Sequence record: ON210139.1
Source of the DNA: Escherichia phage EC128
Length of the DNA stretch: 64,000 nucleotides
Reading direction: 5' to 3' (one strand)
This document shows, piece after piece, positions 14,037-14,849 of this stretch (position 1 is its first letter; each line of letters starts with the position of its first letter). The notes under the pieces were generated by a model, which was not told where the DNA came from, did not search any database, and was given only the letters and a program-made list of their open reading frames with translations. The position numbers and the translations under genes were made by a program.

Positions 14037-14849
14037 TTATTCGACCTTCTTAAATTTGCAATTGTCAAAATGGTATCTTTTAGCGTGAGACTTATCCATG
14101 ATTTTAGAGCAGTGCGGGCATTTTAATTTTTCTCTGCTATGAGATACACCCGTGATAACTTTGCATTTATCGCCGTGGTATTTTCCATAATTTCCTACAT
14201 CACATATAATTCCGCAATGCGGGCAATTTCTCTTTTCGACTTTTGCAAGACCCTTAGATAGTTTATTTAAATACTTTTCGTATTTTTGGGGGTCACTTTT
14301 AAGCTCAGACCAAAAATCTTTCATCTGTTTAGAACATCTTTCTTTATATTCTAACATTTCGTTTTCTGATAACGATTCCAAATATTTCACTGAAGCTTTT
14401 CGAATATTTGCATTAACTTCTTTTCTCTTTTCATCTGTCCATAAAGATTTAGTTTTTTTAATGCCTTTTCCGGCTTTTTTAATTCGTTCCTGTTTTAAAT
14501 TTGGTGATAGATTCGCCCAAAACTTTTTAATGGTTTCTGATCTAATTTTAGATGTTTCCTCTTTAATCCATCCGTAATCTTTACTTACAATTCTCTGCTC
14601 TTTTGTACCCTTGGAGAATTTTATTAAAGCATAAGCCATTTCAGAATTTCGGTGTATTTTAAAAAGAAGCTCATGTGCAAAATAGTGTTCTCTTGCTGTC
14701 AGTAAAACCTTGTTTTCTCTAGAATCATCTCCTCCCATGGATTTTGGGACAATATGGTGTGATTCTGTATAATAATCTAATTTTTTCTTATTAAGACCTC
14801 TTTTAAGAGATCTTTCTATAAGAGAGTCGTAAATTTTAGTATAATTCAT
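14037..14849 (-). CDS. HNH homing endonuclease with two C-terminal CPHC...H..C zinc-finger repeats
   Basis: [30 protein letters not shown] matches the HNH motif; tandem CPHCG..YHGDKCK and CPHCSK..YHFDNCK repeats; inserted between genes 13 and 14. Confidence 0.8.

Follow-up and report, generated by a model that had tools for sequence, protein, structure and literature searches.

A probable free-standing homing endonuclease gene of the Mob class at the boundary of neck genes 13 and 14 in a T4-like phage

Endonucleases of the Mob class have a common N-terminal HNH domain, to which a C-terminal domain specific to each enzyme is joined (PMC2790892). MobE is the only Mob protein with mapped activity, and attempts to obtain its cleavage again in vitro did not succeed (PMC2790892). 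It introduces a strand-specific nick that leads to co-conversion of the flanks. In addition, a two-part target has been proposed for it: the C-terminal domain would bind conserved codons, and the host genome would be protected by polymorphic nucleotides where the nick is made (PMC2790892).

The gene described here lies in a 64,000-nucleotide stretch of Escherichia phage EC128 (ON210139.1), called the window below. It resembles T4 mobD and the other genes for MobA-E in its HNH N-terminus and in standing free between conserved genes in the same orientation (PMC2790892, PMC2988022). Like them, it apparently has no promoter of its own and has a predicted DNA-binding C-terminal part that is specific to the enzyme (PMC2790892, PMC2988022). 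However, mobD is located at nrdC.11/mobD.1 and the window gene at 13/14, and the C-terminal half of the window protein, with two CCHC fingers, is unrelated to that of MobD. A further comparison is offered by the intron-encoded phage HNH enzymes I-HmuI and I-TevIII, in which modular DNA-binding units are likewise attached to an HNH core; such units (NUMOD3) are present in homologues of the window protein, but the window gene lies outside any intron. KMB99_gp239 of phage T6 and about 45 further entries represent the same gene at the same position and with the same junctions, only a few substitutions apart. We regard the window gene as very probably a free-standing homing endonuclease gene of the Mob class, inserted precisely where the stop of gene 13 meets the start of gene 14.

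Position, expression and distribution of the inserted gene

The window belongs to the genome of a T4-like phage (Tequatrovirus); in a 25-kb comparison the closest match was 97% identical. The neck and packaging genes lie on the minus strand and succeed each other as wac, 13, the open reading frame (ORF), 14, 15, 16 and 17, with genes 16 and 17 at 10086-12396. The ORF and its two neighbours are:

14846..15775, minus strand: gene 13 (neck, head-tail adaptor), the upstream host gene, 98% identical to T4 gp13
14037..14849, minus strand: the probable free-standing homing endonuclease gene of the Mob class, 270 aa plus stop (ORF list, phrog_655, T6 identity)
13265..14035, minus strand: gene 14 (neck, head closure), the downstream host gene

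Gene 13 is annotated as such in relatives, and the start of gene 14 was set at MATYDKN, the same as in T4. Both genes are complete and of full length beside the insert. An earlier note, made from the letters alone, had described the ORF as embedded between them, its start overlapping the gene 13 stop. This was borne out on both counts. Gene 13 ends with ...GTT GGA TGA (stop at 14846-14848) and the ATG of the ORF lies at 14849-14847, forming ATGA, in which the A is common to the last sense codon of gene 13 and the TG to its stop. At the other end the ORF closes with AAG AAG GTC GAA TAA (TAA at 14039-14037), and a single nucleotide separates this stop from the gene 14 ATG (14035-14033). The embedding thus consists of overlapping and abutting start and stop signals. 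The further statement that the ORF stop abuts the gene 14 ribosome-binding site has to be corrected, as the GAAGG (14049-14045) sits within the last codons of the ORF. That T4 has no gene at this junction, as stated in the same note, agrees with the reference genome NC_000866, where the last nucleotide of gene 13 is 94553 and the first of gene 14 is 94555; when T4 and T6 were aligned with the window, an insertion of 810 nt was seen with respect to T4. Within 13000-16000 no Rfam family, group I introns included, was matched at E values up to 1, and the window holds no paralogue of the endonuclease.

To find a late promoter for the endonuclease, positions 10090 to 22171 of the minus strand were searched for an exact TATAAATA, and none was found; variants with one mismatch occur inside the ORF. 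A scan for sigma-70 promoters and terminators did not rise above shuffle expectation, except for a hairpin upstream of gene 13. This strong GC-rich hairpin, which a T run follows (TGGGGCCGCAAGGCCCCA AAGGATTTTT; 15788-15805, minus strand), separates wac from gene 13, lies immediately ahead of the start of the latter and looks like a terminator or an RNA-stability element inside the late operon. RNA structure at the endonuclease start, at the gene 14 start and at the T4 junction gave z-scores of -0.2 to +0.4, with no sign of a regulatory hairpin. With no late promoter of its own, the endonuclease would be read from the late polycistronic neck mRNA, and its translation would be coupled to that of gene 13 via the ATGA overlap.

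The 810-bp insert is present in 46 of the 509 Tequatrovirus records that match the neck region (about 9%), with 96-100% identity and always at the 13/14 junction. The search for empty sites in T4-like genomes, which the earlier note had recommended, therefore shows that the ORF does not occur in all relatives. Carriers include three T6 records, whereas T4, T2, AR1, RB33, ECML-134 and HP3 have an empty 1-nt junction. In nearly all of 65 IMG/VR loci from across the T4-like group at large, genes 13 and 14 are closely spaced, 3-80 nt apart. Presence and absence of the insert vary among phages that are otherwise about 95-98% identical, and in phage BYEP01 an insert 100% identical to that of the window has different flanks. 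The gene is already known by annotation in T6 and about 45 other records: the RefSeq annotation of KMB99_gp239, 99% identical to the window protein, reads "homing endonuclease", and further isolates are labelled homing endonuclease, HNH endonuclease or mobile endonuclease. Three mob-like HNH genes had been counted in T6 by a review of 2010 (PMC2993671), and this gene may be one of them. No paper characterising the gene and no experiment on its protein was found in the searchable literature.

This distribution bears on a different reading, in which the ORF encodes a terminase-associated HNH packaging protein like gp74 of the HK97 type. The terminase genes 16 and 17 are only a few genes away, which is in favour of such a function. 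However, genes 14 and 15 separate the ORF from gene 16, the T4-type terminase gp17 is annotated with a nuclease of its own, and the architecture of the protein matches that of homing enzymes with Mob and NUMOD3 elements. Moreover, the gene is absent from about 90% of close relatives, T4 and T2 included, and these natural phages imply that packaging proceeds normally without it. The packaging function is highly improbable on these grounds and is ruled out by the patchy distribution. Patchiness alone is no proof of active homing, because T-even phages recombine so freely.

Two records with duplications around the junction were seen during the survey. BYEP02 (L068:1900-2200) has a 77-nt repeat at the junction that was taken for a remnant of the insert and rejected as such, since it repeats the start of gene 14 in tandem. 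The record of vB_EcoM_005 (L060:3478-5072) has duplicated pieces of gp13 and gp14 around a Seg-like gene. Both duplications are probably assembly artefacts, but they may also be footprints of endonuclease-driven recombination.

Domains of the encoded protein

The whole protein matches phrog_655 "homing endonuclease" in PHROGs (E=1.8e-52), and 413 homologues were retrieved by database search. An alignment of 60 of them was used to build an AlphaFold2 (AF2) model with a mean pLDDT of 93.4. The protein can be divided as follows:

14652..14777, minus strand: HNH (beta-beta-alpha metal) nuclease core, aa 25-66 (Pfam HNH_4 and HNH, invariant residues, AF2)
14241..14585, minus strand: five long helices, aa 89-203, a degenerate NUMOD3-type repeat region
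14163..14225, minus strand: zinc finger 1, CCHC, with C209, C212, H225 and C229 (motif positions, AF2)
14058..14120, minus strand: zinc finger 2, CCHC, with C244, C247, H260 and C264 (motif positions, AF2, invariant ligands)

The HNH motif that had been read from the translation is recovered by Pfam HNH_4 at aa 25-52 (E=1.2e-5, above the gathering score). E29, H31, H32, G40, N46, H55 and H59 are invariant in the 60-homologue alignment. In the model the nuclease core is formed by strands 29-32 and 47-50 and helix 52-66 (pLDDT 95-98), which gives the two strands and the helix, with the conserved His and Asn residues, of the His-Me finger (beta-beta-alpha metal) nuclease fold. Over its first 117 aa the protein is 46% identical to MobD as annotated in RB7 (E=2e-31), and similarity to MobD is absent beyond aa 117; a MobD-like N-terminus joined to an unrelated C-terminus is the defining pattern of the Mob class. 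The window gene shows the other marks of the class as well, namely a MobA-E-like HNH N-terminus with the catalytic His/Asn/His residues (H31, H32, N46, H55, H59) intact, a free-standing position in the orientation of its neighbours, absence from close relatives and an enzyme-specific C-terminus.

The middle part is presumed to be a DNA-tracking linker. Pfam NUMOD3 motifs were found in this region in 43 of the 60 homologues; the repeats of the window protein itself are of the same type but too degenerate to score. Two C-terminal zinc-finger repeats, also noticed earlier, are indeed present as C209-P-H-C212...H225...C229 and C244-P-H-C247...H260...C264, and the model has beta-beta-alpha modules at 206-224 (finger 1) and 241-259 (finger 2). 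The ligands of finger 2 (C244, C247, H260, C264) are invariant in the 60-homologue alignment, while finger 1 is kept in three orthologues at the same site but not in every homologue. As the set of ligands is found twice and the fold in the model is compatible, the modules are putative CCHC variants of the classical beta-beta-alpha zinc finger. MobE, a much smaller protein than that of the window, is not known to have zinc fingers. The enzyme-specific C-terminal region with its NUMOD3-type helices and two CCHC fingers is thus a candidate for the DNA-binding part.

Structure searches gave weak matches at the level of domains. A Cas8-HNH protein was found by Foldseek with a probability of 0.97 but an E value of only 0.14, the HNH domain of Cas9 and the STPR DNA-binding helical repeat matched weakly, and the C2H2 fingers of CTCF and Tramtrack had E values above 0.3. 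A sequence search of the PDB returned sub-threshold HNH-motif matches only (E 0.08 or higher), so that no significant relative of solved structure was found there, and an NCBIfam search of the protein gave nothing meaningful.

The end of gene 13 and its linkage to the insert

Eleven insert-bearing and nine empty Tequatrovirus loci were aligned across the junction, and fixed differences between the two groups were confined to the last seven codons of gene 13:

14846..14866, minus strand: the recoded block of gene 13, GTG GGA GTG TTA GTT GGA TGA

Insert-bearing loci end with CC(A/G) GTG GGA GTG (T/C)TA GTT GGA TGA (PVGVLVG-stop), and empty sites sampled from the T4 group with CCA TTT GGA ATT TT(G/T) GT(A/G) GGT TAA (PFGILVG-stop or PFGIFVG-stop). 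Complete linkage to the insert (r2=1) is restricted to the nucleotides from -20 to 0; r2 is 0.44 at -21, does not exceed 0.28 at positions farther upstream and is close to 0 in gene 14 from +16 onwards. A probe over the recoded end of gene 13 and the beginning of the endonuclease gene matched all 46 insert-bearing records with no more than 4 mismatches. The recoded allele was found in none of 618 empty sites, in which a modelled insert-free recoded end had no continuous match above 91.1%. The body of gene 13 is 95.05% identical between groups and 95.4% and 94.6% identical within them, so the insert marks no clade; between-group identity likewise equals within-group identity in genes 14 and 15.

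The recoded block probably protects the target in the donor allele. Two other explanations could apply. The linked substitutions could create a ribosome-binding site for the endonuclease gene, as the recoded GTGGGAG contains a Shine-Dalgarno-like GGGAG about 12 nt upstream of its ATG, or they could be donor sequence brought in at the original insertion. Recoding is not a general requirement, since the orthologues in L084 and L086 keep a T4-like gp13 end (PPFGIL). A separate observation concerns five empty-site loci (L008, L009, L011, L012 and L019, around 3915-3945), whose gp13 is about 73% identical to that of the window. It ends with PTGVLVG-stop, with GGATGATG overlapping the gene 14 start. 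Because this end resembles the recoded allele (GVLVG-stop, GGATGA), such a lineage may be the source of the recoded block.

On the protein level the linked changes are conservative (gp13 F304V and I306V, window 14852-14860). They fall into the C-terminal arm of gp13, residues 301-308 of which insert between the clip domains of the gp20 portal according to cryo-EM (PMC12929587).

A course of homing can be proposed on the model of MobE, in which an empty allele would be nicked or cut and then repaired by recombination. In a mixed infection with an empty-junction phage the zinc fingers and helical repeats would bind the conserved junction sequence, and the HNH domain would nick or cut within roughly -21 to +16 nt of the junction. 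A cut very near the insertion point is predicted because linkage stops about 20 nt out. Recombination-dependent repair of the T4 type would then copy the gene from the donor together with the ~20 nt next to it. The donor allele itself would be protected, its site being split by the 810-bp insert and altered by 7-8 substitutions in the last gene 13 codons. Homing enzymes generally choose functionally constrained sequence. MobE belongs to the same family, and the pattern of conserved and polymorphic target positions is also seen at the end of gene 13 in the window. However, the nick made by MobE lies in nrdB, over 100 nt away from mobE itself, whereas the linkage pattern of the window gene suggests a cut within about 20-40 nt.

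Persistence at the site and rival readings

The three closest non-identical homologues are 52-57% identical over the full length and keep both fingers. All three are located directly upstream of gene 14 in metagenomic T4-like contigs, and in two of the three the end of gene 13 lies immediately upstream. Since the gp14 proteins of these contigs are only 69-79% identical to that of the window, the lineage has kept its site while the host genes diverged, as expected of a site-specific homing element. In one locus (L085) the endonuclease ends with ...KLVG-stop (TAATATG) and mimics the end of gp13, ILVG-stop (TAATATG), which suggests that the original insertion fell within the last codons of gene 13 and duplicated them. 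The same architecture is also found at another site. In RB68 (L089:1201-1914), RB32 and others a full-length homologue with about 30% identity and 99% coverage occupies the space between genes 45.2 and 46 and runs in the opposite direction to its neighbours.

Endonuclease genes of other kinds occur at the boundaries of neck genes as well. By tblastn, GIY-YIG (Seg-like) genes were found at the 13/14 junction of other T4-like genera in 57 phage records, among them Mosigvirus RPN187 (gp167), Dhakavirus VR26 and SP18 ("segC"). Four examples, at the position that corresponds to window 14036-14849, are:

L030:3927-4562: GIY-YIG gene at the 13/14 boundary
L039:4000-4584: GIY-YIG gene at the 13/14 boundary
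L067:355-969: GIY-YIG gene at the 13/14 boundary
L088:1801-2436: GIY-YIG gene at the 13/14 boundary

These genes share the landing site between the gene 13 stop and the gene 14 start and the patchy distribution with the window gene, but they belong to an unrelated nuclease family, and they take the start context of gene 14 where the window gene takes the stop of gene 13. They begin with MATYY... (gp14 MATYD...), and their 3' end overlaps a new start of gene 14. In two diverged phages of the T4-like group (L055:4698-5360 and L084:1621-2217) the space between genes 14 and 15 is taken by a Mob-like HNH gene that has NUMOD3 motifs and one CCHC finger; the second of these phages has endonuclease genes on both sides of gene 14. 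Because GIY-YIG genes occupy 13/14 and Mob-like genes 14/15, neck-gene boundaries are recurrent landing sites.

The ORF is under purifying selection. Its dN/dS against diverged copies is 0.05-0.31, third codon positions hold 31 of its 47 variable sites, and 10 of 11 sampled copies are of full length. The copies of F1 (L083:1998-2809), FN and SHFML-26 have a 1-nt deletion in an A7 run (ORF nt 391, window ~14459) that splits the ORF, so not all copies are functional as recorded; this frameshift could be real decay or a homopolymer sequencing error common to the three records.

From these data the gene could also be seen as an inactive relic, that is, a once mobile gene that is now merely carried along in the neck operon and decays slowly. 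The three frameshifted copies agree with this, and T4 does carry defunct endonuclease genes such as I-TevIII (PMC2790892). The low dN/dS and the full-length copies argue against it, as do the catalytic and zinc-binding residues, all of which are intact in the window copy, and we consider a relic slightly less likely even than domestication. In the latter case a nuclease derived from a homing gene would be kept for the benefit of the phage, for example by excluding competing phages or parasites or by promoting recombination or amplification, and would no longer home at the site. Strong purifying selection and the long persistence at the site, as judged from the 52-57% identical orthologues, are consistent with domestication, for which ICP1 Odn and SegB-driven amplification are precedents in the literature. 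However, only about 9% of Tequatrovirus records carry the gene, no cargo or defence gene is attached to it, and nothing points to domestication specifically, while tight linkage to a recoded flank on the target side is a prediction for a homing element. Domestication is therefore unlikely.

The designation as a probable free-standing homing endonuclease, at which the earlier note had arrived, is thus upheld by the sporadic distribution, the homology to MobD, the site conservation among the orthologues and the fully linked recoded flank. Its nuclease activity, cleavage site and preferential inheritance are predictions from these comparisons.

A more far-reaching idea is that the endonuclease gene is permanently coupled to the recoded portal-binding arm of gp13, and that HNH-Mob and GIY-YIG-Seg enzymes colonised the boundary independently. 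We hold this to be doubtful. If the recoded arm alters how neck and portal fit together, a structural allele would spread along with the gene at every homing event. If the idea is true, the junction would be a place where selfish elements drive or constrain the co-evolution of the head-tail connector, with partial incompatibility between phage lineages.

Free-standing homing endonucleases of T-even phages are well described, and the window gene adds one more to them. Its value is that of a clean case, in which the predicted target can be confined to about 40 bp where genes 13 and 14 meet, the candidate protective recoding falls in the portal-binding arm of gp13 and the same gene boundary is used by the unrelated GIY-YIG family. 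With MobE as the only Mob enzyme whose activity has been mapped so far, it would be a convenient system for target choice and donor-allele protection by Mob-type enzymes.
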